This document shows, piece by piece, positions 1 through 44,370 of a stretch of 44,661 nt of DNA (the first letter of the stretch is position 1; the number at the start of each line of letters is the position of its first letter). The stretch is from NCBI RefSeq assembly GCF_004010195.1, contig NC_057718.1:58607868-58652528 (forward strand). The letters are read 5' to 3'. The stretch comes from Chiloscyllium plagiosum (lineage: Eukaryota). A program made the translations under genes and the position numbers. The notes beneath the pieces were generated by a model, which had not been told where the DNA came from, did no database searches, and saw only the letters and a program-made list of their open reading frames with translations.

Positions 1-150
1 GTGGGAGGAAACCGGAGCACCCGGAGGAAACCCACGCAGACACGGGGAGAACGTGCAAACTCCACACATTCAGTCGCCTGAGGCAGGAATTGAACCCGGG
101 TCTCTGGCGCTGCGAGGCAGCAGTGCTAACCACTGTGCCACCGTGCCGCC
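1..150 (-). mobile_element. HE1-type tRNA-derived V-SINE, 5' part (cut by window edge)
   Basis: Reverse complement reads GGGCGGCACGGTGGCACAGTGGTTAGC (A box)...GGTTCAATTCC (B box)...GTTTGCACGTTCTCCCCGTGTCTGCGTGGGTTTCCTCCGGGTGCTCCGGTTTCCTCCCAC (V-domain core). Confidence 0.9.
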
Positions 151-157
151 CACAAAA

Positions 158-490
158 CCTTACAGTGGTTTACAAAATTATGAGGGGCATGAATAGGATA
201 AATAGGCAAAGTCTTTTCCCTGGGGTCGGGGAATCCGGAACTAGAGAGCATAGGTTTAGGGTGAGAGGAGAAAAATATAAAAGAGACCTAAGGGGCAACT
301 TTTTCACGCTGAGGGTGGTATGTGTATGGAATGAGCTGCCAGAGGAAGTGGTGGAGGCTGGTACACTTGCAACATTTAAGAGGCATTNNNNNNNNNNNNN
401 NNNNNNNNNNNNNNNNNNNNNNNNNNNNNNNGCATGGACGGGTTGGACCAAAGGGTCTGTTTCCATGCTGTACATCTCTATGACTCTATT
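158..490 (+). mobile_element. CR1/HER1 LINE 3' end
   Basis: VYKIMRG...LFP...TREHRFRVRG...RGNFFTLRVVCVWNELPEEVVEAGT; ends CTCTATGACTCTAT. Confidence 0.9.
388..431. other. Assembly gap (44 N)
   Basis: Run of N. Confidence 1.
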
Positions 491-1239
491 TGAATGCTTG
501 TACTCTGTTTTCTTATCCAGTCAGAAAATATACTAATCTCCAAAGATTGTTGAACAGGGTATGCAACACAATTGTAAACTTAAATGCAACATTATAAAGT
601 TAACTAATACAAAAGTAACATTGCGTTCAACAAACGAAAACGCGGCACTACAAGGACATGGCTGTTAAAGGTCAATGGGCTCGGAGTATACCACCTCTGT
701 CCTTTTCAAGCTTGAAATACTGGACTGAAATGCAAAACAGAAGCACCTTATTCTTTGAGCTCTAACTCTGCAACATTTGACTATTGTCTTCACTCTATAG
801 TCTCATGCTGCATTTCTTTGTCAAATGAAGCTAAGCACAGTTACATGATATTAAAGTGACAACATCTGCATTAGCTATACTTAAGCAGAATAATATAACA
901 TTAAGTTAATCAGTGAATGTACCTTAATTGTATGATTGTAGTTAAACTGAGTCAGTCATGAAATATTAGCTTCCTTACTAACCCTACAGTTCCCCTCTGT
1001 GAGGTTTAAAATGTCTGGCAATTGATACCTCACATAATAATTTTCTTATCTATTTTACAATTGTAGTTACAATTATAAATTCAAGCATTTTGTCTTCTCT
1101 AAGTTAGTTTCAAGTGAAATTTAGGTTCCCTCAAGCGTTTTGTATTCTTACTGTGCTTAAATGATTTGTTGTGACTTTTTACACAATTAGTGTCTGTCAG
1201 AAGCTAAAGGTAGCTTGCTGATTCATTGTAGATTTATGG

Positions 1240-1690
1240 AAATGTTACTTGCATTTCAGGGGTTAGGTTTTGAGGAGATGTTATACAAATTAAGCCTGTT
1301 TTCTCTAGAATTGAGAAGGTTAAGGGATGGTCTGATTGAAGTCTTCACAACATTAACAGGAAAAGGCAGGGTAGATAAACTATTTCCATTGGTTGGGGAT
1401 TCTAGAACTAGGGGGCATAGTCTGATAATTGAGGCCAGACCATTCAGGGGAGATGTTAGGAAGCACTTTTCCACCCAAAGGACAGTTGATGTTTGGAACT
1501 CTCTTCCACAAATGGCAGTGGATGCTGCTCAGTTGTTAATTTTAAATCTGAGAGAGACCATTTTTGTTAAGCAAAGGTATAAAGGAATATGAGCCAAAGG
1601 GAGATATATATATAGTTAGCCATAATCTCAGTGAAGAGTGGAACAGGCTTGAGGGACTGAATGGCCTAATCCTGTTCCTCTGGTCATAGG
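1240..1690 (+). mobile_element. CR1 LINE 3' fragment
   Basis: LSLFSLELRRLRDGLIEVF...SRTRGHSL...VWNSLP; 3' UTR GGCTTGAGGGACTGAATGGCCTAATCCTGTTCCT. Confidence 0.85.
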
Positions 1691-2069
1691 TTTAAGCTTT
1701 GAGTGAGGCGATCTGTTCAAATTGCCAAATTTTCTTTAGATTTTAGATTCTCGACACCCATATTAAAACTCACCGTATTCTGTTTGTCGTAATCTCTGAA
1801 TAAAATTGATTTAGAGTTATGCTATACATCTGTTTGTCATCCTTCAGTTTTCACCAGCAGGTCAATTTACTCTATAGCAACAAAACAAGATCACAAATTA
1901 ATTTTAAATTCTCCAGGTCTCCCTTCACCTTGAAGACATTTCTTGCTAGCATTCTTATTCTAGACCCACAGTTGTTCGAATCAAATTTCTGTCATTTTTC
2001 TTTAATTTTATTCACGTTAGAATGTATCAATGTGTTTAACTGAATCCAAATTGTTTTAAGATCCCAATA

Positions 2070-2320
2070 CGGTGAGGGGGAAAGATTTAAAAGACAACTG
2101 AGGGGCAACGTTTTCACGCAGAGGGTGGTGCATGGTGTGGAACAAACTGCCATAGGAGGTGGCAGAGGCTGGTACGATTACAACATTTTAAAGGCATCTG
2201 GATCGGTATATGAATAGGAAGGGTTTAGAGAGATGTGGGCCAAATGTTGGCAAATGGGACTAGGTCAGATTGAGATGTCTGGTCGGTATGGACCAAAGGG
2301 TCTGTTTCCAGACTGTATGG
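2070..2320 (+). mobile_element. CR1/HER1 LINE 3' fragment
   Basis: GGGGCAACGTTTTCACGCAGAGGGTGGTG...GGACCAAAGGGTCTGTTTCC, homologous to 158-490. Confidence 0.85.
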
Positions 2321-3244
2321 GTAAAAGGTCCCTCTGATTTGCAGCTTTCTGCAACATTTATCCATTTAAATAATGTTTTCTTTTGTTCTCCCTTCCAAAA
2401 TGAGCAACTACACATTTTCCAACACTATATTCCATTTGCCAAGTTTTGTCCATTTACTTATCCTATCAATATAACTGTCCCTCTTGTATTGTTAAGTGGA
2501 ATAGGCCACTGTACAACTGAGCCCCCCTCATGCAGGCATTGAATGAGGCGTTAAGGAAGACACGTAATTGCCAATAGTTCGAATTGTTGCAATATTTGTG
2601 ACTTTTTTTTCAGCACTTGAACAGAAGTACAATGGGTTGGTTAGTTCAGATTAAATAGTTTCAGGCAAGTGTTAGAAGTCCTATGAAAGTCAATATGAGG
2701 TTCCTGACTCCTGATATGTTCATTGGAGCAATAAATATCTTTTGGGAGCCATTAATGATCTTAGAAGCTGTTTCTGGTGCCTTGTTGTCAGTAGTCACTG
2801 AACTATCACTCTTTCGAGCATGTTCTGCAGGCCAAGAGAAACTGCCTGAAGCAGGATGTAGGGGTGTACGTAGTTAGGCCAAAGGATCTGTTTCTGTGCT
2901 GTATAACACTGTAACTATGATTCTCTATGTAATGCATTTTGACTCTCTTTGATCTCACCAAAAGATCTGGATAGCCAGTCCTTACTTATCTCTGCATTCT
3001 TTGCCTCAGATGCTGGCCTGACTATCAAATTCAGTTCTCTTAAAAAGAAGACAAGGCCACAAACATTGCCAAGAGAAAAACATTGATTTATTGCTTTTAT
3101 TTAGTGTTTCCTTCCACTAAAATGCATGCTAATATCAAGTTGACCGAGTTACACCAAGACACATTTTTCCAATCTCTGTTATTTGCTGATTTATTTGTCT
3201 CTGTCTTGTAGCCTCAATTAATTTTTCTCATTTTAAATGTATGT

Positions 3245-3695
3245 GTAAGCACATAAGAAATAGGATCAGCAGTTGCAATTGAGCCCGTCAAGCCTGCTCC
3301 ACCATTTTATACAATCATGGTTGTACAAATCTCAGCCTCAAGTTCTATTTCCTGTTGACTCTCCAAAACCCTAAATTATAAACCTGTTTATCTCTTCCTT
3401 AAATTTATTTAGTGTCCTGGCATCCACAGCTCTCTGAGATAGTGAATCCCACAGATTCATGACATTTTGAGAGAAGTAACTCCTCCTCATCTCTGTTTTA
3501 AATCTGCCACTCCTTAGCTTAAAATTATGGTGTTTGCCCCACAAGGGGAAACATCCTTTCGACATCTAATTTGTTAATCCTCTTTAGCATCTTATATACC
3601 TCAATTAGATCTCCTCTCATTTTTCTCGTGAGTATTGGCCTAAATTGTGCAAACTTTCCTCATAAGACAAGCCTTCCACATCCCAGCAATTACTA
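3245..3695 (-). mobile_element. CR1 LINE 3' fragment
   Basis: ORF 3371-3565(-) RFKTEMRRSYFSQNVMNLWDSLSQRAVDA; CR1 3' UTR near 3250-3310. Confidence 0.85.
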
Positions 3696-10165: not shown

Positions 10166-10846
10166 TCTTAAGAAATCAAGCGTTGAGTTCTACCCATTTC
10201 TGATGCATAACGCTATTGTCCCTGAGCACAATGCAGCCTGGAAGTATTACATTGAGAAGTATTGGTGAACCCCAAAGTACAGTATTAGATTGGTGAACTG
10301 GATTATTAGCGATTCCGAGATATGCCATGGTGATGGGGTGAGTCTGGTGTGCTTGGTCAATGTCAATCTCTCTGGTTGGAGGATGGGGGTGATCATTGCA
10401 CATGGAATACCCCACATGAAACTGGCCACCATGATGACTCAGAAAGCACATTGGTGAGTGACAGCTACCTGTTGCCAACTATGACTTTCATATTGGAAAT
10501 TGTCACTGTCTACTTTCTTACCACTGCTTGGGAAAATAATAATGCACAGATAAACGAGGCAATATTTGTAATAACAAAATGCTAATGCATGCAAATAGGC
10601 CCCTTGCTATTCACTTGCGCGATTCTCAATTAGAGGTTGAAATATTCTGCGCAAAATCAAACTTTCATTTCTGTATGTAAAGAATCTGATTTCTACATTT
10701 GCACTATATTTTCCCAATTGTTTCATCATTGTCCATGTTGTTCAGGAACTGGGAAAATTCAGCCCAATAATTCAGGACAAAATTAATCATTACTTGGGCA
10801 AATGTGGGTCTTTTAAGAAAAACCAGAATGGATTTGTTATCATTGA

Positions 10847-11027
10847 GGAGAAAGTGAGGTCTGCAGATGCTGGAGATCAGAGCTGGAAATGTGTTGCTGG
10901 AAAAGCGCAGCAGGTCAGGCAGCATCCAGGGAACAGGAGAAGGGCTTATGCCCGAAACGTCGATTCTCCTATTCCCTGGATGCTGCCTGACCTGCTGCGC
11001 TTTTCCAGCAACACATTTCCAGCTCTG
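10847..11027. mobile_element. Palindromic Penelope-derived mini-element (family A pLTR ends, inverted)
   Basis: 64-nt arms 10878-10941 and 10964-11027 with 1 mismatch; loop GGGCTTATGCCCGAAACGTCGA. Confidence 0.85.
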
Positions 11028-11369
11028 GATTTGTTATCAGTCAATTGTGTTTAACTAAGTTGCTTGCATTTATAGATGGAGTGACAGTGAATAAAATGAG
11101 GGTCATGATTATATGGTGTGTTATCGTATTTTTACTCGACCTGTATAGACATATTATGGCATACTTCTGGAGCAGGTGGGACTTGAATCCGGACATCAGG
11201 ATACAAGATGTGATCTGTGACATTTGAACTGCTGCAACAGCACACTCATAATTAATGAACAATGTCGTACAGGATTTATCAATGACAAACAAAATTTACA
11301 AACTAATCTCTCTGTATTCAGTTGGGTCCTTACTTTATAAATATCTCAAAGAGCATGATTCAATTTTAT

Positions 11370-17255: not shown

Positions 17256-17339
17256 CTCAGCCTTTGTCTTATTTTGTGCTGCTAATTAATAGGAAATGGA
17301 ATAATCAGTAAAATCTGGATGCCTGATTATTCCAGCCCT

Positions 17340-17467
17340 CCTGAAGAAGGGCTTATGCATGAAACGTCGATTCTCCTGCTCTTCGGATGCTGCCTGGCCT
17401 ACTGTGTTTTTCCAGCACCACATTTTTAAACTCTGGTCTCCAGCATCTGCAATCCTCACTTACTCCT
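17340..17467 (+). mobile_element. Penelope family A pLTR 3' end starting at the hammerhead core
   Basis: CTGAAGAAGGGCTTATGCATGAAACGTCGATTCTCCTG...CTCCAGCATCTGCAATCCTCAC. Confidence 0.8.
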
Positions 17468-17495: not shown

Positions 17496-19990
17496 GATTT
17501 GATTTGATTTGATTTATTATTGTCAAGTGCATCATATCATAACATACAAAGACACAAAGATCATAGGGTGATTGGACAGAGCCTAGGATACAAAGTTATG
17601 GCTGCAAAGAAGGTGCACAAAAAAAAAGATCAACATTAGATTTGAAATTTGAGAGGTCCATTCAGAAGTCTATTAACAATGGGGAAGAAGCTGCTCTTGA
17701 ACCCGTTAGTGTGTATGTTTAAGCTTTTGTATCTTCTATCTGAGAGAAGAGGTGGGAAGAGATAATGACCAGAGTGGGAGGGGTCTTTGATGATGGCTGC
17801 GTTTCTGTGGCAGCGAGAAGTGTAGATGGAGTCAATGGATGGAAGGTTGGCTTGCGTGATGGTCTGGGCTGTGATCACAACATTCTGTAGTTTCTTACAG
17901 TCCTGGGCAGAGCAGTTGCTGATAGAATGCTTTCTCTGGTGCATGTGTAAAATTTTGGTGAGGGTCCTTCTGGACATGTTGACATTCCTTACATTCTCGA
18001 GGGAGAAGAGGTGTTGTTTTGCCGTCTTGAGCATTGCATCAATACGGGTGGTCCAGGATAGATTGTTTGTGATCTCACTCCTAGGAACTTGACTGTCTCA
18101 ACCATCTCCACCTCAGCTCCATTGATGTAGGTAGGGGCGTGTCCTCCTACTTCCTGAAGTTGATGATCAGCTCTTTAGTTTTGCTGACATTGAAGGAGAG
18201 ATTGTTATTTTTGCATCACGTCACCAAGCATTCTATCTCCTTCCTGTATTCTGTCTCATCATTGTTTGATATCCAGCCTACAACAGTAGCGCAGTTGGAG
18301 TTTGGACGAAATTTGGCCAGAAGGTCATGAGTCTATAAGGAGCTGGGGTGCTGAGTACGCTGCCTTGCAGGGCACCGGTGTTGATTGCCGTGGAGGAGAT
18401 GCTATTTCCTATCCTCACTTACAGTTGCGGTCTGTGTGTCAGGCAGTCAAGGATCCAGTTGCAAAGGTTGGAGCAAAGGATTTAGGTCTGAGTTTGGAGA
18501 TTAGTTTGGTTGGGATTATCGTGTTGAAGGAGTTATGGTCAATGAGTAGAAGTCTGATGTAGGTATCCTTATTAACCAGTTGAGTGTAGGGCTAGGGAGT
18601 TGATGTCTGCCATGGACCTGTTGCACTAGTAGGCAAATTGCAAGAGACCAAGGCTGACTGGGAGGCTAGAGTTGACATGAGCTATGGCTGTCAAGAATGT
18701 GTGCTGGAAAAGCACAAATGGTCAGGCAGCATCCAAGGAGCAGGAAAATCAACATTTCGGGCACAAGCCCTTCTTCAGGAATAAAGCTGGGAGCCTTGGG
18801 GGTGGAGAGATAAATGGGAGGGAGTGGGGTTGAGGAGAAGGCAGCAGAGAGTACAATAGGTGGTTGGAGGTTGGGGTAAAGGTGATAGGTCAGAGGGGAG
18901 GGTGGTGCAGATAGGTGGGAAGGAAGATGGGCAGATGAGACAGGTCATGAGCTTGAAGATTGGAACTGGGGTAAGATGGGGCGGTGGGAAAATAAGGAAA
19001 CTGATGAAATGCACATTGATGCCATAGGGTTGGAGGATCCCAAGGCAGAAGATGAGGCGTTCTTCCTCCAGGCATTGGAGGGGTAAGGGAGTGGCGGTGG
19101 AGGAGGCCCAGGACCTGAATGTCCTTGGCAAAGTGGAAGGGGGAGTTGAAGTGTTCGGCCACGGGAAGTGGGGTTGAAGCGCTCTGTGAGTAGGCAGCCT
19201 GTCTCCCTAATGTAGAGGAGACCGCATTGCGAGCAAAGGATACAATAAATGATATGTGTGGAAATGCAGGTGAAACTTTGATTGAAGTGGAAGGTTCCTT
19301 TGGGGCCTTGGCTGGAGGTGAGGGGGGAGGTGTGGGTATAGGTTTTACAATTCTTGCTGTAGCAAGGAAGGTGACAGAAGGTGAGGGTGGGTTGTTCAAG
19401 GGGCATGGACCTGACGAGGTATTCACGGAGGGAACGGTGAAAACTGGATAGGGGTGGGGAGGGAAATATTATCTCTAGTGGTGGGGTCTGTTTGTAGGTG
19501 GCAGAAATGGCAGAGGATGATGCGATATTGGTGGGATGAAAGGTGAGGACCAGAGGAGTTTTGTCCTCGTTGCAGTTGGAGGGATAGGGTTCAAGGGCGG
19601 AGGTGCGGGATCTCAAGGCACTTCATAATTATGGAAGTCAGAGCCACTGCATGGTAGTCATTGAAGCACAATGCATGTGTTTTCTTTGGTACTAGGATGA
19701 TGATGGTTGTATTGAAACAGATGGGAGTTCAGATTGTAGCAAACACAGGTTAAAGATGTCCGAGAATACTCCTGCCAACTGGCCCGCACAGAATCTGAGT
19801 GCACAGCTAGGGACTCCATCTGGGTCAGTTGCTTTCTATGGGTTCACTCTCAAGAAAGCCGATCTGACATTTGCAGCAGTGACTGAGGGAACAAATGCAT
19901 CTGGAGCTAAAAGGTGACACCATTTCACTGATCTTCTGCTCAAACTGAACATAAAAAAAATTGAGCGCATCAGGGAAGGATGTAATTTGT
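17496..19990 (-). mobile_element. Rex1/Babar-clade LINE (decayed), split by a Penelope insertion
   Basis: PDALNFFYVQFE, AGILSDIFNL, NDYHAVALTSIIMKCL, CKKLQNVVITAQTIT...IIKDPSHSGHYLF..LLSDRRYKS...FKSSFFP; (AAATC)n tail at 17496-17515. Confidence 0.82.
18696..19612 (-). mobile_element. Penelope-like element family A, 5'-truncated: GIY-YIG C-terminus plus pLTR
   Basis: FTCISTHIIYCILCSQCGLLYIRETG; LEEERLIFCLGILQPYGIN; pLTR with CTGAAGAAGGGCTTGTGCCCGAAATGTT; possible TSD TCAAG (18691-18695 and 19613-19617). Confidence 0.88.
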
Positions 19991-22099: not shown

Positions 22100-23316
22100 T
22101 CACCGCAAGGCTCAGTGTTGGGATCACAACTTTTCACTTTATACATTAACGATCTAGATGAAGGAACTGAGAGGATTCTGGCAAAGTTTGGAGATGATAC
22201 AACGATAGAGAGACAGGTAGTACTGAGGAGATGGGGAGGCTGCAGAAGGATTTGGGCAGGTTAGGAGAGTGGGCAAAGAAGTGGCAGATGGTGAACAATG
22301 TGAGAAAGTTTGAGGTCATGCATTTTGTAGGAAGAGGTATGAACTGTTTTCTAAATGTGGAGAAAGTTCAGAAGTCTGAAGTGCAAAGAAACTTGACAGT
22401 TCTAGTCCAGGGCTGAAAATGTGTTGCTAGAAAAGCGCAGCAGGTCAGGCAGCATTCAAGGAACAGGAGAATCGACATTTCAGGCATAAGCCCTTCTTCA
22501 GGAAGAAGGGCTTATGCCCGAAACGGCGATTCTCTTGTTTCTTGGATGCTGCCTGACCTGCTTCGCTTTTCCAGCAACACATTTTCAGCTCTGATCTCCA
22601 GCATCTGCAGCCCTCACTTTCTCTCAAAAAGTTCTAGTCCAGGATTCTCTTAAGATAAACTTGAGTCAGTAGTTAGGAAGACAAATGCAATGGTGACATT
22701 TACGTTGAGAGGACTTCAATATAAAAGTAGGGATATACTTCTGAGGCTCTATAAGGCTCTATTCAGACCACATTTGGAGTATTGAATGCAGTTTTGGGCC
22801 CCATATCTCAGCAAGGATGTACTGGCCCTGGAGCATGTTCAGGGAGGTTCACGAGAATGTTTCTAGGAATGAAAAGCTTAACTTATGAGGAACGTTTGAG
22901 GACTCTGGATCTATGCTGAATGGAGTTTTGAAGCTTAGAAGGATGAGGGGGATTTAATTGAAACTTACACAACACTGAATGGCCTGGACATAATGGATGT
23001 TGGGAAGATGTTTCCATTAGTAGGAGAGACTGGGACTCAAGGGCACAGCCTTGGAATAAAGGGAAGACTTTTTAGAACTTCTTTAGCTAGAGAGTGGTGA
23101 ATCTATGCTATTCGCTGCCACAGAAGGCTTTGGAGGCCAGATCATTGAGTGTATTTAAGACTAAGATAGGTTCTTGATTGTCAAGGGGATCAAGGGATAC
23201 AGGGAAAAAGCGGGAGAATAGGGTTAAGAAACTTATCAGTCATGATTGAATGGCAGAGCAGACTTGATGGGCTGAATGGACTACTTTCTGCTCCTATCTC
23301 CTATGGTCTTATGGTT
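22100..23316 (+). mobile_element. CR1 LINE, 5'-truncated RT plus 3' UTR
   Basis: PQGSVLGSQLFTLYINDLDE, KFGDDT, LQKDLGRLGEWAKKWQM, RPHLEY; tail CTATGGTCTTATGGT. Confidence 0.9.
22412..22629. mobile_element. TSD-flanked palindromic Penelope-derived mini-element with back-to-back hammerhead cores
   Basis: Arms of about 87 nt spanning 22412-22589, centred on CCCTTCTTCAGG|AAGAAGGG; 14-bp TSD AGTTCTAGTCCAGG (22398-22411 and 22630-22643). Confidence 0.92.
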
Positions 23317-28342: not shown

Positions 28343-28469
28343 TTGGTGCTGTAAGTGGACAATGAAGAAGGTTATCTAAGATTACAAAGAGATCTTAGTC
28401 AATTTGGTGCTGTAAGTGGACAATGAAGAAGGTTATCTAAGATTACAAAGAGATCTTAGTCAATTTGGT
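28343..28469. repeat. Perfect 61-bp tandem duplication at the LINE 5' end
   Basis: 28343-28403 is identical to 28404-28464, with TTGGT microhomology. Confidence 0.95.
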
Positions 28470-30330: not shown

Positions 30331-30377
30331 GGAAGATACATGAAGTGCTACTATGAAATATTCCACTTTTTTTTTCA

Positions 30378-30535
30378 CTTGCAGGATATGGGCAACGTTG
30401 GCTGGCCAGCATCTTTTATTGTCCATTCCTAGTTACCCTCAACAAAGCTAGTGGTGGAGAACTGCATTCTTGAATGCTATAGTCCATGTGCTATAGGTTA
30501 TCTCACAATGCCATTAGGGAAGGAATTTCAGAATA
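30378..30535 (-). mobile_element. Isolated 3' tail of LINE family 2
   Basis: GGATATGGGCAACGTTGGCTGGCCAGC... homologous to 30600-30750 and to the reverse complement of 38340-38440. Confidence 0.75.
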
Positions 30536-31499
30536 TGTACAACAAAATCACTCTGAACATCAGTACTTTCCAGAGTCCTATCCATCTTGTTGATTTCACT
30601 CGTGGGATGTGGGTATCAATGGCTGGCCAGCATTTATTGCCCATCCCTAGTTGCCCTTGAGAAGGTGATGGTAAGCTTCTTAAACCACTGCAGTCTACAT
30701 GCTGTAGATTGACCCACAATGCCCTTAGGGAGGGAATTCCAGGATTTTGACCCAACAACAGTGAAGGAACAGCAATATACTTCCAAGTCAGGATGATTAT
30801 TGGCTTGGAGAGGAGCTTGCAGGTAGTGGTGTTCTCATGTATCTGGTGTCCTTGTCATGATCATGGATTTGGAAGGAGCTGCTGAAGGATCTTAGTTGAA
30901 TTTTAGCAGTGCATCTTGTAGATAGCACACTGCTGCTTTGACAGTCGGTGGTTGGGGGGGTGGGCTGTGGCGGGGGAGGGGGGGGAATGTTTGTGGGTGT
31001 AGTACCTATCCAGCAGGCTGCTTTGTCTTGGATGGTGTAAAGCTTCGAGTGTTTGGGCTTCACCCATCTAGGAAAGTGAGGAGAATTCCGTCACACTCCT
31101 ACCTTGTGCTTTGTAGATGGTGGACAGGATTTGGGGAGTCAGGAGGTGAGTTACTTAATGCAGTACTACGAGCCAATGACTTCTTTCATAGCTGTTGTTT
31201 TTTTATGGAAAGTCCAGTTGAGTTTCTAGTCAATGGTAACTCCAAGAATGTTGATAGTGGGGATTTCAGTGTTGGTGACACCACTGAATGTCAAGGAGCA
31301 GTAAGTAGTTTGTTTCTTATTAGAGATGGTCATTGGATTACATAAGTTGATAGAATACAGATGGAGAGAATGGAATTCTTACCGATTTGCTCATGGGTTG
31401 TAGGTATCACTGGCTAGGCTAGCATTATTGCCCATCCACAATTGTCTTTTACCTTGGAGACAAGGAAACACTGTGCAATCTTCAGCAAACATTACACTG

Positions 31500-31885
31500 C
31501 TCAACATTTTTCCCTGGAGTATCGGAAGGGCGATCTTAGAGAAGTTAATAAAATCATGAGAGGCATGGACAGTGTGAATAACCAAGGTCCTTGTCCCAGG
31601 GTAGGGAAGTCCAAAACTAGCAGGCATAGGTTTAAGGTGAGAGAGGAAAGATTTAAAAAAGGCCTGAGAGTTAACCTTTTCAAGCAGAGGATGGTGCATA
31701 TGTGAAACGAGCTGCCAGAATAAGTGGTGGAGGCAGATACATTTAAAAGGCACCTGGAATAGTTTATGAATAGGAAAGGCTTATGGTGCAAATGCTGACA
31801 AATGGAAGTATATCAGTTTGGGACATCTGGTCCATGTAGATGAGTTGGACCAAAGAGTCTGTTTCCATGCGGTATGACTCCATGA
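31500..31885 (+). mobile_element. HER1 3' fragment nested in LINE family 2
   Basis: GDLREVNKIMRGMD...RHRFKVREERFK; tail GGTATGACTCCATG. Confidence 0.85.
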
Positions 31886-32728
31886 AGTAGTGGAAGATGT
31901 TTGAGCCTAGGATACAACCCTGAGGAACTCCTGCTGTGATGTATCAAGCCTGAGACAACTGATTTCCAACAACCAGAAGCATATTCCTTCATACCAGGTA
32001 TCACTCCAAGCCCTGGAAAGTTTTCCCTGTATTCCCATTGACTCCAGTTTTGCTTGGGCTCCTGTACGTAATACCCAGTCAAATGCTAACTTTGTGTTAA
32101 GAGCAGTCACTCTCACCTTCCCTCTGGATTTTAACTCTTCTGCCCATGTTTAGACCAAGAGTGTAATGAGGTCAGGAACTGACAGCCCCTGCTAGAACTG
32201 AAACTGAGTGTCGATGCGTAGGTTGTTCCTATGCAAATGTAGCTCGATAGCACTGTTGATGACACCTTCTATCACTTTATTGATGATCAAGAATATGCTG
32301 CTAGGGTTAAAATTGGCTGTGCTGGATTAGTCCTGCTATATGTGCCCAGGACATATCTGGGTAATTTTTGACATTCTTAGTTACCTGCTAGTATTGTTGT
32401 TGTGTTGGAGTAGCTTGCTGATGGGCACAGCTAGTTCTGTAGTCTTCAATATTATTGTCAGAATGTTGTCATGGCCCACAGCCTTTGCGGTATTCAATGC
32501 TTTTGATCATTTCTTGATATCACATTGAGTGAATCAAATGGGTTGAACACTACCATCTGTGATACTGGGAGACCTCAGGACAAGGCTGAGATAGATCATC
32601 CACTTGACGTTTTGATAAAAGTGGATGCAAATATTTCAGCCTTGCCTTTTGCACTAATTTGCAAGGTTAACCCATCATTGGGGAGAGGGATATTAGTGCA
32701 GCCTCTCCTTTTGGTTAGTTATTTAACT

Positions 32729-33669
32729 TAGCGAGTTTTGAGAAGATTTGTAGCTCAGGTGGAGGTTCTGCATGTAGGTTTGCTCGCTGAGCTGGAAGGT
32801 TCATTTCCCGACGTTTCGTCACCCTACTAGGTAACATCTTCAGTGGGCTTCCGGGCGAAGCAATCATCCTAACATCCACAAAAGAAGCTGCATCAGAATA
32901 TTATTTCAATGAGCCACCTCACATTGCAGCACAGAGGAACTAGGCAGAGCAGAGGAAAATTACCTATACCGAGTATTCAAAAAGAATGGGTACCCAATGA
33001 ACACAGTCCACCACTTTCTCAGCAACAAACCCAAGCAAGCAGACAAAACATGTCCAGAAACCTTAGCCACTCTCCCCTACATCAAAGACATCTTGGAAAT
33101 GACTGTCAGACTACTCAGACCCTTTGGCACCATGGTAGCACACAAACCCACCAACACACTGAAACAGTAGCTAATGAACTTGAAAGACCATATACAGACA
33201 ACAAGCAAAGCTAATATCTTTTACACAATACCGTGCAAGAACTATAACAAACACTACATTGGACAAACAAGCAGAAAACCAGCCACCAGTATACATGAAC
33301 ATCAACTAGCCACAAAATGACATGACCCTCTCCCACTAGTATTTTTATACACAGATGAAGAAGGACACCACTTCAACTAGGACAACACATCTATCCTAGG
33401 ACAAGCCAAACAGAAACACGCACGAGAATTCCTCGAAGCAAGGCATTCCAACCGGAACTCTATCAATAAACAAATTGAGTTAGATCCCATCTACCACCCC
33501 TGAGAAAAAGAACAGGAAATGACAGCACCACAGGAAATTGCATCACCATCAGAAATGACAAAGAAACCCAAACATATAAATAGAAAGCAGGAATCATCAG
33601 CAGTGCTTCGCCCGGAGGCCCACAACATCTGAAAATGAACCTTCCTGGTCAGCGAGCAAACCTACATGC
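32729..33669 (+). mobile_element. Penelope-like element family B with an inverted 5' pLTR
   Basis: 12-bp TSD AGTTATTTAACT (32717-32728 and 33670-33681); IFYTIPCKNYNKHYIGQTSRK GIY-YIG; 32770-32862 is an inverted copy of 33600-33669. Confidence 0.92.
32810..32843 (-). ncRNA. Minimal hammerhead ribozyme core (PLE family B)
   Basis: CUGAAGA-U-GUUACC(UAGUAG)GGUGAC-GAAAC-GUC. Confidence 0.75.
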
Positions 33670-34284
33670 AGTTATTTAACTATCCTTTACCATTCACAAC
33701 TGGTTGGGCAAGATTGCGGAGTTTCAATTTGACCCATTAGTTATGGATTTAAATTTGTCTCATCTATTGCGCGTTGATTCCATTGTTTGACCCGTGTTTT
33801 AACTTCATGCATTATCATTTCATTTCATTTCTCAGCACACTGCTGTTGGCATGCCATCTTGCACTCTTCACTGAACCAAGGTTGATTTCTTGATTTGATG
33901 GTGATGGTAGTATGGGGAAATGCCTGGTCATAAGTTAACAGACTTTTGTTGAATCCACGTCCATTCCTATTGGTGGCCAAAGGCAGCCCATGGATGCCCA
34001 GTTTTGAGTTGCTACCTCTATTGCAAATCAATTTAGGACATTGAGACTTTTACACTACATGATGGAGACTGGACTATGCTTGCATAAGCATCGTGTTAAT
34101 GTCCATCTAAGTGATATTACTCCTTTAAGTGATGTTCAACATGGAGGAGTGTTGATTTACCAGCCGAGCGCGGTGCGGTAGCCAGTTGTGATAATTAGCA
34201 CAAGGTTTCCTTGCCCGTGTTTGGCCTGGTAGCATGAGATTTCACGAGGTCCATGAAATTTAATGGACTTAATGTTGAGGACTT

Positions 34285-34716
34285 TCGGTGAGAACTAATT
34301 CCAGAGTGAACAGGCTTGTCTGATGCGTGGAGATTGACCAGTTTAGGCCTTTATTCATTAGATTTTAGAAGGATGAGAGGAGATCTAATTGAGGTATATA
34401 AGAAACCCAAGGGATTAACAAAGTAGATGTCAAGTAGATAATTTGCCTTATGGGCCAATCTAGAATGAGCGGTCATAGTTTTAGGCTAAGGGGTTGCAGA
34501 TCTAAAACAGAGATGAGAAGGAATGACTTCTCTCAATTGGTTGTTAATCTGTAGAATGCACTACCCCAGAGAGTGTTGGATGCTGAGATGCTGAATACAT
34601 TTAAAGGGGAGATCGATTTTTAATTAAAAGGTGATAAGGAAAGTGGATTTGAGACCAAAATTAGATCAGCCATGATCGAATTAATAGCAGAGAGCATCTG
34701 GTCCTCTTAGTTTTTA
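34285..34716 (+). mobile_element. CR1 3' fragment nested in LINE family 2
   Basis: FRRMRGDLIEVYK; GAGATGAGAAGGAATGACTTCTCTCA. Confidence 0.8.
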
Positions 34717-35229
34717 AGTACAGGGTAACTCCCTCTTGATTGTATACCACTGTGCTGCCATCTTCGCTGGGTCTGTCATTGCCAGTGGGACAGAACATAG
34801 TTGATGATAGCAATGTCTTGAACATTGTATATAAGGAATGATTCTGTGAGTATGGCTATGACAGGTCTTGACTAGTCTGTCATACATCTCTCCTATTTTG
34901 GCTCAAACCCCCAGATGTTGGAAAGGAGGGTTGAGAGGTCTGTGTTTACTGTGTCATTCTAAGATGTGGGCCGATGCCGGATTGGTCATGTTTCCTTTAG
35001 ACTTTTTGTTGTCTGAGGCATCTAACTGGCTTGCAAGGCCAAATCAGAGGGCAGTTAAGAATCACTCACGTTGCAGTTTTATGTCTGCCAGGCCAGCTAA
35101 GGATGGAATATTTCTTTCCCTAAGGGGCATTAGTTAACCAGATGGATGTTAACAACAGTTGACAGTCACAATTAGGCTAGATTTTAATTGCAGATTTCAT
35201 TGAATTCAAATTTCACCAGTTGCCATGGT

Positions 35230-35294
35230 GGCATTTGAACCCATGTCCCCAGAACATTATTCTGGATTTCTGGATTGACATTACTACGAAGCCA
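35230..35294 (-). promoter_or_regulatory. Degenerate tRNA-type internal Pol III promoter (A and B boxes)
   Basis: A-like TGGCTTCGTAG (35294-35284); B-like GGTTCAAATGCC (35241-35230). Confidence 0.6.
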
Positions 35295-35455
35295 TCACTT
35301 GTAACAGAAACAGAGTGTGAGGAATTGCAATCAAGTATCTGTCAGCTTGTAATGAATGTGAGACAGGATGTCAAAGAAGGGAAAGAAAGAGTTAGGATTG
35401 AACTCTGAGAAGGAAGAGATGGTTGGAAATTGGGCATGTTACCTGGAATTTTGAC

Positions 35456-35776: not shown

Positions 35777-36276
35777 NNNNNNNNNNNNNNNNNNNNNNNN
35801 NNNNNNNNNNNNNNNNNNNNNNNNNNNNNNNNNNNNNNNNNNNNNNNNNNNNNNNNNNNNNNNNNNNNNNNNNNNNNNNNNNNNNNNNNNNNNNNNNNNN
35901 NNNNNNNNNNNNNNNNNNNNNNNNNNNNNNNNNNNNNNNNNNNNNNNNNNNNNNNNNNNNNNNNNNNNNNNNNNNNNNNNNNNNNNNNNNNNNNNNNNNN
36001 NNNNNNNNNNNNNNNNNNNNNNNNNNNNNNNNNNNNNNNNNNNNNNNNNNNNNNNNNNNNNNNNNNNNNNNNNNNNNNNNNNNNNNNNNNNNNNNNNNNN
36101 NNNNNNNNNNNNNNNNNNNNNNNNNNNNNNNNNNNNNNNNNNNNNNNNNNNNNNNNNNNNNNNNNNNNNNNNNNNNNNNNNNNNNNNNNNNNNNNNNNNN
36201 NNNNNNNNNNNNNNNNNNNNNNNNNNNNNNNNNNNNNNNNNNNNNNNNNNNNNNNNNNNNNNNNNNNNNNNNNNNN
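35777..36276. other. Assembly gap (500 N, probably a scaffold join of arbitrary size)
   Basis: Run of N. Confidence 1.
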
Positions 36277-36374: not shown

Positions 36375-38445
36375 TACTTTCAACCCTGGCTCAGTAAAGA
36401 GTGCAGGAGGGTGACTTAAGTGCAGTACCCAGCATAATAAAACATGAGGTGTCAACCTGAAGCTACAGCATAGGACTACTTCTGTGCAAAACAGCATAAG
36501 CATCAAGTGATAGACAGAATGAAGTGATTTCACAACCAATGGATCAGACCCAAGCTGTGCAATCCTGCTTCATCCAGTGGCAATTGGTGGTAGAAATTTA
36601 AAAACTCACTTGAAGAGGGGCTCCACAATTACTCATCCACAGTAATGAGAGAGTCCAGCAGATTAGTACAAAAGATCAGATGGATATGTTTGCAATTCTG
36701 CCAAAGTGTCGAGTCTACAATCCACCTTGGCCTTCTTAGATACGCCAGGCTTCAGTCAATACAATTTTCTCCATGTGATATCAAGGAAGGACTGAAGGCT
36801 TAGGATGCCACAAAAGCTATTGGCTCTGACAACATCCTGGCTAGAGTACTGAAGACTTTTGATCTCGAACTTGCTGCTCCCTATTTAAGCTGTTATTATC
36901 AACGATGATGTCAAGCAGCACGTGCTTAGCAACAACTTGCTCACTGACACTCTGTTCTGTTTCCACTAAGTCCACTCAGCTCCTGACTTCATTACAGCCT
37001 TGCTTCAAACATGGACAAAGAGGTTGAGGCGAGAGTGATTGACCTTGACCTTGACATTACATTTGACAGAATCCTGGGAAATAAAATAGAGTCTGGGAAT
37101 CAAGGGAAAAAAAGTACTTGGTTTGAGTCATACCTAGCACATAGCAAGTTGATTGTGGTTATTGGAAGTCTGTTATCTCAGCTGTAGAACATCGCTGCAG
37201 GAATTCTTCAAGGTTGTGTGCTAGACCTAACCATCTTCAAAAGTTTCATCAATGACCACCCTTTATTGTGAAGCCAGAAGTGGAGAGTTTCACTGATTGC
37301 ACAATGTTCAGCACCATTCGTGACTCCTCAGATACTGAAGCAGTTCATGTCAAAATGCAGCAAGACCTGGACAACATCCAGGTTTGGACAGATAAGCAGC
37401 AATAGCATTTGTGCCACACAGCGCGATGCAATTATTATCTGTAGCAAGAGAGAACCTAACTGTCATTCTCTGGAATTCAACAGCACTACCATCACTAAAT
37501 CCTCCATTATCAAAACATTAACAACATTCTGGGAGTAAACATTGACTAGAAACTGAACTGACCTAACCATATAAGTACTGTGGCTACAAGAGCAGATCAG
37601 CAGTCATAAATTGGGCAGTGGCTCAACTCCTGACTCTCCAAATCCTGTCCACTATTGATAAGTAACAAATCAGGAGTGTAATGGAATACTACCCACTTAC
37701 CTGAATGAGTGCAGTTCCAACAACATTCAAAAGGTTAGACACCATCCAGGACAAAACAGCCTGCTTCATTGTCATCCACAAAGGTTCATTCCTTCCACCA
37801 CTGATGCTCAGTGGTAGTAATGTATACCATCTACAAGATGTAGAATTCACCAACGCATTCTGGATAGAACCTTCCAAACCTATGGCCATGACCTTCTAGA
37901 AGTGCAAGAGCAGCAAAATAAGTGGGAACACCACCATTTGTAAGTTGGTCTCCAAGCCACATAGCATCCTGACTTGGGGGTATATCATTATTCTTTCACT
38001 AGTACTGGGTCAAAATCATTGAACATGCTCTTAAGCTCATTGTCATCCACAAAGGTTCATTCCTTCCACCACTGATGCTCAGTGGTAGTAATGTATACCA
38101 TTTACAAGATGTAGAATTCACCAGCGCATTCTGGATAGAACCTTCCAAACCTATGGCCATGACCTTCTAGAAGTGCAAGAGCAGCAGAATAAGTGGGAAC
38201 ACCACCATTTGTAAGTTGGTCTCCAAGCCACACAGCATCCTGACTTGGGGGTATATCATTATTCTTTCACTAGTACTGGGTCAAAATCATTGAACATGCT
38301 CTTAAGCATCATTATGAACTACCAACAGTAGATAAACTGCAATGCTTCAATCAGGCAGTTGACTACCATCTTCTCAAGGACAATTAGTGATGACCAATAA
38401 TTGCTGGCCCATCCAACAAAGCCCAAATCCCCTCAATGAATTAGA
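36375..38445 (+). mobile_element. LINE family 2, second copy (RT half, decayed)
   Basis: QPWLSKECRR, DNILARVLKT, HSAPDFITAL, AGILQGCVL, MQQDLDNIQVW, RLDTIQDKTACFI; 3' tail CTCAAGGACAATTAG...AATAATTGCTGGCC. Confidence 0.85.
37766..38307. repeat. 271-bp tandem duplication
   Basis: 37766-38036 vs 38037-38307; four substitutions found by eye. Confidence 0.95.
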
Positions 38446-38661
38446 AAAATACAGAAAGTATCTTAAATGTGGCTATGTAATTTCTAATCTAATTTTCTAA
38501 TGACATGTCCACCTGATTTTATTTTCTGGTAATTACTGCATTAAAATAATTGTTTCATATTACTGCCATTTTGCTTGTGCTGCCTGAGATCTTTATCACT
38601 TAGCCATTTTTTGTCTTTAATTTACATGGAATATTTCACTCCTTAATATATGTTCCCTGAT

Positions 38662-38922
38662 TATTTAGTTCTGAATTCCCGCTTATGCATTCTAATTGTG
38701 TGCTTTTTTAAACTCTCCTAATTTGTTTTAGTGCTCTCCTTGGGATTCGTGTACTCGTTGTTTATCTTTATCTTTTCTGCATTTTTTCCCATATTTAGTT
38801 CTGAATTCCCGCTTATGCATTCTAATTGTGTGCTTTTTTTAAACTCTCCTAATTTGTTTTAGTGCTCTCCTTGGGATTCGTGTACTCGTTGTTTATTTTT
38901 ATCTTTTCTGCATTTTTTCCCA
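38662..38922. repeat. 130-bp tandem duplication
   Basis: 38662-38791 vs 38792-38922; one extra T and one substitution. Confidence 0.95.
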
Positions 38923-40892: not shown

Positions 40893-41230
40893 AGTATTTC
40901 TGAATTAAGTAGAGTTCCTTAAGCAAGATTTTATAAACGTTCACTCCACAAACTGTGAAAATAGCATGGACCCTCCAGGGACTAGAATTCTTGAATATTG
41001 GCAGCACAGGTAATTCCTTTTCTTTCCTGTTCCTCAAGTTAAACTGTATCTCAGAAAAATTAAGATCATGGTGAAACTACAGCACAGAAGGTGTTGCATT
41101 TCCCACATTTATCCTAAATTCCAATGACTGCGTGTTTCTTTTTCAAAATGTTTTATTTAACTTTTTCCATTGTCTTTAAATGAAGATCAATATGTATCAT
41201 CCCCACCTTTGTAAATTGAATCATGTTGTG

Positions 41231-41349
41231 GGGGCTTATGCCCGAAACGTCGATTCTCCTGTTCCTTGGATGCTGCTTGACCTGCTGCGCTTTTCCAGCA
41301 ACACATTTTCAGCTCTGATCTCCAGCATCTGCAGTCCTCACTTTCGCCT
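41231..41349 (+). mobile_element. Penelope family A pLTR 3' end, truncated inside the hammerhead
   Basis: Starts GGGCTTATGCCCGAAACGTCG and is nearly identical to 41745-41860. Confidence 0.9.
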
Positions 41350-41570
41350 GTGAAAACAAAAGCCTATTTCATACTCCCTAGGTCCCAGGAACTAGCATTT
41401 CATTATTTGAACAAATAACATCTCCTCTTAGGTACAGAAAAGTTGGACAAACAATGTTACCTCTTCTTATCAAGCTATCAACTAAGGTGTAACTATTCAC
41501 TTAACAATCCGAGAAATGCAACGCAATTAAGAACAAATGTTTCTTTCAGAGGTAAAATGAACAACTTCAC

Positions 41571-41866
41571 CGCCTTCCTAACCTGCAATCATCTTCCTGA
41601 CCTCTCCGCCCCCACCCCACTCCGGCCTATCACCCTCATCTTGACCTCCCTCCACCTATCGCATTTCCAAAGCCCCTCCCCCAAGTCCCTCCTCCCTTCC
41701 CTTTATCTTAGCCTGCTGGACACAGTTTCCTCATTCCTGAAGAAGGGCTTATGCCCGAAACGTCGATTCTCCTGTTCCTTGGATGCTGCCTGACCTGCTG
41801 CGCATTTCCAGCAACACATTTTCAGCTCTGATCTCCAGCATCTGCAGCCCTCACTTTCTCTCAAAG
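41571..41866 (+). mobile_element. Non-coding Penelope family A pLTR insertion
   Basis: 8-bp TSD AACTTCAC (41563-41570 and 41867-41874); C-rich body, hammerhead core and the shared 3' end. Confidence 0.9.
41737..41764 (+). ncRNA. Minimal hammerhead ribozyme core (PLE family A), intact consensus
   Basis: CUGAAGA-A-GGGC(UUAU)GCCC-GAAAC-GUC; palindromic ACGU stem III; stem I weak. Confidence 0.75.
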
Positions 41867-43320: not shown

Positions 43321-44370
43321 GAGGGCTGTAATCTGCTGTAGTTTAGCAATGGAGGGCCTATCAACATGCGCTGTCTCAGCTGCCTTCAGGCGAGCCTCAA
43401 GCAGCTGCTGTTGTTCTCCCTTTTGTCTTTTCCGGGTCGCAGAATATAAGATAACCTTGCTGCACGCGTATGCCTTAGTAGGTCTCCCACATCACCGATG
43501 GGTTACTGGCCATGCCTGAATTGATATCCCAGAAAGTTTTGAATTCCTGCGAGAAATGTTCTATGAACTTACGATCCTTCAATAGGAAAGAGTCCATATG
43601 CCAGTGTCAGGAACCCATCCCGTCATCGCTAGTCTTAACCTCCACATATACTGTGGCATGGTCGGAAATAGTTATATTACCTATTTTACAAAACAATATC
43701 AAATTCAGAAAGGTTGAAGGGACAAAAAAACATATGGCACTTGTGTGGATTAGAATAAAAAGTAAAATATCTACCCTCAGGGTGAAGACACCTCCCCACA
43801 TCTACCAGCCCCAACTCCCTATTCAGATCAGCCAACTGCCTAGATCTCAGAGACATATCCGTGGAGCTCCTAGGTATCCTGTCCACCTCAGGGTCGATAA
43901 TACAATTAAAACCTCCCCCTATAATTGTGTGATGCACCCCGAGAGCTATCAACTTAGAAATTCTCTTACAAATTTAAAAGGATGTGCCGGGGGGCAGTAA
44001 ACATTCAAAATCCCGTATTCCTCTCCATATATTAGGGCTTTAAGTAATATATACCGTCCAGACGCATCTTTTATCTGACTTAGCATTTGGAAGCAAAGAT
44101 GCTTCTGAATACGAATGGCCACTCCCCTACTTTTTGAACTAAAAGATTAAAGGAACACCTGGCCAAATCCACCCTGTTGCAGCTTCGAATGCTCCTTATC
44201 AAGTAGATGTGTGTCCTCTAGAAGGGCTACATCAACCATTTCTTTTTAAAGACTTGATAATATCTTTTTCCTTTTAATTGGTGAGTGGCTCCCCTTGACA
44301 TTCCAGGTGCACCATTTAAACGAATGACTGGTCATGATCGTTCAAGCAAGTCTGAGACCCCCCAGGAGGA
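43320..44370 (-). mobile_element. L1-clade LINE ORF2 N-terminus (APE endonuclease), decayed
   Basis: ATG at 44335: MTSHSFKWCTWNVKGSHSPIKRKKIL; SKSRGVAI; DASGRYI; LNVYCP; IIGGGFN; LVDVGRCLHP..FTFYS; ISDH. Confidence 0.85.

Follow-up and report, generated by a model that had tools for sequence, protein, structure and literature searches.

A decayed retrotransposon with a transfer RNA (tRNA)-derived head lies in a 44,661-nucleotide (nt) stretch of the Chiloscyllium plagiosum genome (NC_057718.1, positions 58,607,868 to 58,652,528; hereafter the window). Judged by its sequence, the element at 35294-30597 on the minus strand is an old, heavily decayed elasmobranch Zenon long interspersed nuclear element (LINE) of the CR1 group, from a family that is abundant in sharks and rays. 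It carries four nested inserts: two CR1-type 3′ fragments, one Penelope-like piece and one tail-only copy of the same Zenon family. The order of its parts, a tRNA-derived head, a body like that of a short interspersed nuclear element (SINE), an apurinic/apyrimidinic endonuclease (APE), a reverse transcriptase (RT) and a 3′ tail, is almost certainly a trait of the family as a whole and, of the vertebrate Zenons compared, was seen only in those of elasmobranchs. In the most far-reaching reading, given a probability of roughly 40%, elasmobranch Zenon would be an autonomous, protein-coding RNA polymerase III (Pol III) retrotransposon, with a captured tRNA promoter, a 3.3-kb sense strand purged of T-run terminators, an uncapped RNA translated non-canonically and complete SINEs arising from it by a single internal deletion.

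Published Zenon consensus sequences (PMC13343379 supplement) were compared with the window copy by eye, over the first 400 nt of each and without computed identity. All seven shark and ray consensuses, representing five species (CarCar, RhiTyp, ScyCan and HypSab Zenon-1; SquAca Zenon-1, Zenon-2 and Zenon-3), start with the same head and body, and in two of the seven these 400 nt reach as far as the APE start. The head is present in none of three coelacanth and hagfish consensuses over the same span. Two motifs of the window were found among the Zenon consensuses, one in six places and the other in SquAca-3.

At the window locus, contigs of DNA runs aligned at 80% likeness extend from the body to the APE. 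One spanning contig is present in each of three runs, at 34503-35230 in organism A, 34472-35140 in organism B and 34472-35145 in organism C, with 2, 22 and 34 differences, respectively. Thus the junction is no assembly error and is older than the split of the three organisms. The 5′ edge of the element is sharp, because in run X1 the summed contig depth is 17,244 inside it (35124-35286) and 14 outside (35287-35420); farther into the element the depth is 2,804 (34961-35123), 1,730 (34798-34960) and 3,103 (34635-34797). Recurrence of the head-APE junction, a check set beforehand in the first-pass annotation of this DNA, is borne out by the head in all seven consensuses and by the contigs that bridge the locus in three organisms, and the agreement of the seven consensuses speaks against a junction unique to this locus through chance SINE insertion.

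The APE start (NIWG) lies at 34919, 375 nt past 35294, a distance that was recomputed and agrees with the earlier figure. It matches a profile from 25 long relatives with 8.0 bits, a score as high being given by 0 of 200 shuffles. The RT matches the profile of relatives with 123 bits, its pieces are ordered down to about 30850, and the 3′ tail follows, as first described. Removal of the nested inserts leaves 2,828 nt of Zenon-derived sequence, in line with the previous estimate of about 3 kb. The elasmobranch consensuses measure 2,886-3,314 nt, most of them 3.2-3.3 kb, and the window copy has internal deletions. No tail was found between head and APE, and a search around the main copy for a target-site duplication (TSD) gave nothing convincing, the best candidate being a 6-mer located some 60 nt away from the 3′ end; the missing tail had been noted. 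The poly(A) is worn away in the main copy, and a sister tail-only copy retains A9 at 30375-30367.

A Pfam search of the decayed frames of the main copy gave no match, and three head frames gave no meaningful one. The element shows a single APE-RT frame and no open reading frame 1 (ORF1), as the 375 nt between the 5′ edge and the APE start offer no space for one. The main copy does not fit the canonical CR1/L2 layout of an esterase ORF1 and a long RNA polymerase II (Pol II) 5′ untranslated region. The missing ORF1 had been presented as unusual; its absence stands, but according to the available sections of Stuart et al. (2026; PMC13343379) such absence is universal for Zenon. Similarly, the proposal of an autonomous single-ORF, SINE-headed LINE agrees with the single ORF and the tRNA head of the family consensus but not with the window copy, which is heavily decayed and not autonomous.

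The proteins closest to the window RT belong to whale shark, sevengill shark, horn shark, manta and catshark, which marks this repeat-rich DNA as shark-like. In an RT tree made by a quick method from 114 rows, the window RT pairs with whale-shark P0014 (support 99) within a 29-row group (support 86). This group includes a lepidopteran protein, presumably also a Zenon; no labelled Repbase reference is in the tree. In a word-index protein search two decayed queries matched nothing, and a clean fragment gave five matches, with no intact shark ORF2 among them. Pattern scans with head and tail motifs gave 0 matches in viral contigs and 0 in prokaryote genomes, and a locus search of viral contigs confirmed none. 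The only metagenome match of the pattern scan (L001) was rejected as a chance bacterial match. Two predicted host proteins, of manta (P0158) and catshark (P0159), contain a Zenon RT fragment, either an exonised repeat or a gene-model error.

In the elasmobranch Zenon consensuses A and B boxes are found at tRNA spacing (by eye), and between them an anticodon-arm-like hairpin occurs twice in tandem. The loop of the first hairpin contains AGT in most consensuses, and there may be a likeness to tRNA-Thr. In the second hairpin, dogfish and white shark differ by two double-sided changes that leave five pairs intact (by eye); this hairpin also folds in the window copy, where the head gives z = -2.85, with 1 of 200 shuffles as good; folds of the body and of the tail are no better than shuffles. 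The A and B boxes earlier assigned to 35294-35230 differ in quality. The B box is a good match. The A box is degraded and matches only at four mismatches, as do four other positions; it is not above chance alone and so is recognisable only against the family consensus. ARAGORN and Rfam called no tRNA on the decayed window copy. In HypSab, the one cleanly traceable consensus, no ATG of the APE frame lies beyond its last upstream stop, and the APE start is overlapped, in another frame, by a short frame that opens with ATG (both by eye); the ORF2 start is thus probably non-standard. Assignment of the body to Meta, UCON3 or Deu was rejected: the Meta, UCON3 and Deu-end sequences printed in the available parts of PMC7245038 and PMC4824008 are unlike the body by eye, and motif searches, which covered all but one supplement file, were negative. 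SacSINE1/Deu was also dropped as a source of the head, the SacSINE1 tail being L2 and the body being without Deu likeness by eye.

A SINE-like short form consisting of head plus tail exists. Contigs link the tail to the head at 30656-35195 in at least three cases in run X1 and at least seven in run X17, with none among the X13 joints listed, and X17 also displays a joint at 30655-35046 with one letter between the two sides. These are the joints among the matches listed; more than 5,000 further joints exist. SINEs made of the same head and tail, which had been put forward as something to look for, are thus represented by such contigs. Both sides of the 30655-35046 joint have a short microhomology in common. 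This is consistent with a deletion in the long form, yet the direction is not fixed by one junction.

Pol III stops at T runs, and a Pol III unit should therefore be without them on its sense strand. The sense strand of the Zenon pieces in the window (4,562 nt, three copies) has 4 runs of four or more T (T4+) vs 13.2 expected (P 0.003, 2,000 shuffles) and 0 runs of five or more vs 3.2 expected; runs of A, C and G are normal. An amino-acid-aware null gives 2.6-3.3 T4+ per kb vs 0.88 observed. CR1 remnants in the window (4,330 nt) are enriched instead, with 26 T4+ vs 16.6 expected, the borders of Zenon and CR1 segments having been drawn by hand from alignments and profile matches. The other copy lacks three of the four Zenon T4+ runs, in keeping with their origin by later mutation, and the stretch with the fourth is deleted there. 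Among 80 control LINE-like loci, taken from prokaryote-labelled assemblies and interpreted as host DNA, the observed/expected ratio (O/E) for T4 has a median of 1.15, and only 4 of the 80 have a ratio as low as the 0.30 of the window or lower. T4 runs are found in 0 of the 7 elasmobranch heads (first 400 nt, by eye); several are present in LatCha_Zenon-1 and EptBur_Zenon-1. ARAGORN called no tRNA in 41 control loci, and a loose A/B pattern occurs in 5 of 39 upstream regions of control loci, none convincing; both results are weak, since the same tools miss the window head too.

RNA data consist of one poly(A) single-cell run (X21), about 2% of the reads. First mates over the head give 25.4 plus vs 4.4 minus, reported as a sense bias. 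Fifty-two reads carry 13 further nt past 35195 (minus strand) and then a long poly(A), which starts about 20 nt after a position reading AATAAA in some consensuses; these reads possibly stem from few loci. Copies of the head may serve as sites of polyadenylation or yield short polyadenylated RNAs.

Under the preferred Pol III reading, an ancestral headless Zenon would have gained the 5′ part of a SINE in the elasmobranch stem, most simply by template switching of the RT from LINE RNA onto SINE RNA, and the head would have been retained because an internal promoter is copied with each full-length insertion. TFIIIC and Pol III would start at the head and read through the T-run-poor 3.3-kb unit. 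Translation of ORF2 from the Pol III RNA would begin in a non-standard way, through reinitiation downstream of a short upstream ORF, and the ORF2 product would bind the 3′ tail and insert by target-primed reverse transcription. Deletions from body to tail would give rise to SINE-like elements that no longer code for protein but retain the promoter and the tail. Putative synthesis of the full-length RNA by Pol III, on which the T-run statistics bear only indirectly, is given slightly less than an even chance.

Several points weigh against this reading. Two of three non-shark loci in the tree group of the window RT are also T4-poor (O/E 0.26 in L003, 0.45 in L043 and 0.89 in L002), and L003, which is nearly complete and ends in a poly(A) tail, contains a single T4 within 2,733 nt. 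The depletion is therefore only suggestive of Pol III. Scarcity of T runs may be an older Zenon trait, one that could have permitted head capture rather than followed it; the L003 and L043 sequences lack 5′ ends. The T4 inspection of the consensuses covers the first 400 nt and not the full length. At 34961 and 35013 the depth at 80% is that of a single copy; no further copies aligned through the spacer at this likeness, and multi-copy bridging therefore rests on the published consensuses. In X21 there is no pile of starts or ends at the element, and the sense bias over the head resembles that of the tail and that over most of the Penelope-like insert. The head contains many upstream ATGs, and uncapped Pol III RNA is poorly translated. 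Kojima (2024; PMC10886601) argues that such elements are kept to about 1 kb by the processivity of Pol III and that their autonomous partners depend on Pol II.

The same architecture may instead be served by Pol II, whether by read-through that starts at host promoters or from a Pol II promoter within the body, with the tRNA-like fold kept as structure, e.g. as an RNase P-type cut site defining the 5′ end (like the ribozymes in R2, RTE and Ingi) or as a translation aid, and with Pol III acting on short forms only. Such a course is plausible, if somewhat against the odds. Conservation of the hairpin and the exact start at tRNA +1 fit it equally well, T4 scarcity is also seen in the non-shark Zenon-group loci, self-processed 5′ ends are established for other ORF1-less LINEs, and LINEs are regarded as Pol II units. 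However, the A and B boxes are conserved among the consensuses, the T4 depletion is strand-specific and is not shared by CR1 of the same window, and the 52 poly(A) reads just after the head suggest that it can end, not aid, read-through RNA.

It is improbable that the head, as a SINE 5′ part captured once, is just a neutral passenger that marks the reach of reverse transcription and has no role for the LINE. Heads do differ by indels among the consensuses, and HypSab and SquAca-3 are without parts of it, but sharks and a ray alike retain the head precisely at the 5′ end, with compensatory changes, and a promoterless element would be expected to erode from its 5′ end. An accident, either a SINE beside a 5′-truncated LINE or consensuses that are SINE-LINE chimeras from consensus extension, is largely refuted and highly improbable. 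The window copy has no TSD, and the head is 6-10x deeper than the APE start, so that headed short forms could bias consensus building; but from its head to its APE, spacer included, the copy is collinear with the consensuses and has no intervening tail, each of the three organisms has a contig across the junction in its DNA run, and the seven consensuses from five species agree.

Table 1. Parts of the main Zenon locus and associated Zenon copies, in window coordinates.
Feature	Position	Strand	Remarks
tRNA-derived head	35200-35294	-	A box degraded, from 35294; first of two hairpins partly lost in window copy; second at 35265-35249; B box 35241-35231; collinear by eye with seven published consensuses
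SINE-like body	35020-35199	-	Common to all seven elasmobranch Zenon consensuses; short form joins tail at about 35046
Leader/spacer, body to endonuclease	34936-35019	-	Strongly diverged in window copy
APE N-terminal part	34695-34935	-	NIWG at 34919
Nested CR1-type 3′ fragment	34312-34690	+	Matches window 3390-3674
Remaining APE (internal deletion) and linker	33682-34290	-	33680-34100, 15.3 bits, 0/200 shuffles; 34090-34300, no profile match, by eye
Nested insert, presumably Penelope-like	32726-33680	+	48-nt direct repeat at 32768-32815 and 33624-33671; no Pfam match
RT N-terminal half	31890-32725	-	
Nested CR1/HER1-type 3′ fragment	31504-31885	+	
RT catalytic-motif remnant	31455-31503	-	FAEDC
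Nested short tail-only copy	31384-31450	-	Same Zenon family
RT C-terminal part and ORF2 end	30680-31345	-	
3′ tail	30597-30680	-	Also in short form; poly(A) eroded
Separate tail-only Zenon copy	30367-30534	-	Ends in A9
Second Zenon copy, 5′-truncated	36530-38450	+	72-73% identical where aligned; 271-nt tandem duplication

Assembly gaps (N runs) are present at 35777-36276 and 388-431; the larger lies on the upstream side of the head, clear of it by about 480 nt. Other repeats are found in the window. Young V-SINE copies with intact A and B boxes, which we take to be of the HE1 family, lie at 21627-21300 and 1-151 (both minus strand), the former with a CTAAT-repeat tail. A high-copy repeat at 10846-11062, 17339-17467, 18702-18784, 22406-22628, 41216-41352 and 41729-41865 forms direct copies and near-palindromic tail-to-tail pairs (e.g. 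22408-22499/22502-22593, 90%), presumably inverted ends of the Penelope type. Old decayed sequence at 37766-38307, 28343-28464 and 38662-38922 contains tandem repeats of 271, 61 and about 130 nt whose units are 98-100% identical, either duplicated recently or artefacts of assembly. Another LINE, probably L1/Tx1-type as a guess, is represented at 43970-44329 (minus strand) by an APE-like frame with 13.8 bits to the profile.

The 80 control loci (L002-L081), many with uninterrupted frames, come from prokaryote species-representative assemblies (symbiont and sediment metagenome-assembled genomes) and point to contamination of these assemblies by eukaryotic host DNA. One such LINE-like protein (P0170) is labelled bacterial at NCBI. 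In L003, the Zenon-group element occupies 67-3030; its coding region contains a single T4 run, and its poly(A) tail is followed by a GA microsatellite.

The available sections of Stuart et al. (2026; PMC13343379) describe Zenon as having a poly(A) tail, with elasmobranch consensuses more than 84% alike. The terms tRNA, promoter and pol III have 0 matches in the main text of that paper, so that the head, though part of the deposited sequences, is undescribed there. No description of a tRNA-headed shark LINE was found in the literature searched (titles, abstract starts and passages, including bioRxiv 10.1101/443036), although Repbase Reports, Dfam, subscription journals and other supplements could hold one, and a full-text literature search for the tail motif found no paper. 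The Zenon family and its lack of ORF1 are already known, and its tRNA head appears undescribed in the literature searched.

LINEs are prevailingly seen as Pol II units and SINEs as short Pol III units, a divide that is blurred by a tRNA head kept across sharks and rays. If Pol III does drive Zenon, its RNA would be a natural multi-kilobase Pol III mRNA, which raises the question of its translation. Elasmobranch Zenon is a compact retrotransposon (3.3 kb, one ORF), and its tRNA-headed form offers a one-step route to SINE birth.

The window copy shares head, body, APE start and single ORF with the elasmobranch Zenon LINEs, a family of about 3.3 kb, and differs only in decay and nested inserts. 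HE1 is a tRNA-headed shark V-SINE whose partner LINE, presumably HER1, differs from shark Zenon; BLAST of the Zenon head against the HE1-type copy in the window gave no match. As described in the available parts of the sources cited, SacSINE1 (PMC5499810) is likewise a tRNA-headed shark SINE, with Deu and an L2 tail, and its partner LINE differs from Zenon. ZenoSINE/Fritillar (PMC6685494) and the bivalve V, Core, Meta and Deu SINEs (PMC11481361) combine a SINE head with a Zenon 3′ tail, but there the head is on the SINE only, whereas in sharks it is on the LINE. The long terminal repeat elements of TRIMp3 (Cassandra, Helenus, Ajax; PMC10886601) also captured a Pol III promoter but are non-coding and at most about 1.3 kb. 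Bipartite RTE- and Vingi-derived SINEs such as Bov-tA (PMC5786205) show that bipartite LINE derivatives seed SINEs, the tRNA head there being added after the deletion. The nearest precedent is RTE-1_DAn, an ORF-bearing LINE noted in one sentence of the same source with a tRNA-like sequence, which belongs to a different clade. The Persaeus SIDE (short internally deleted element) of lepidopteran Zenon (PMC6740152) is a short non-autonomous element that arose by internal deletion of Zenon and, like the shark short form, keeps both ends. Persaeus is stated to be without tRNA homology or a Pol III promoter, whereas the 5′ end retained by the shark short form is the tRNA head.

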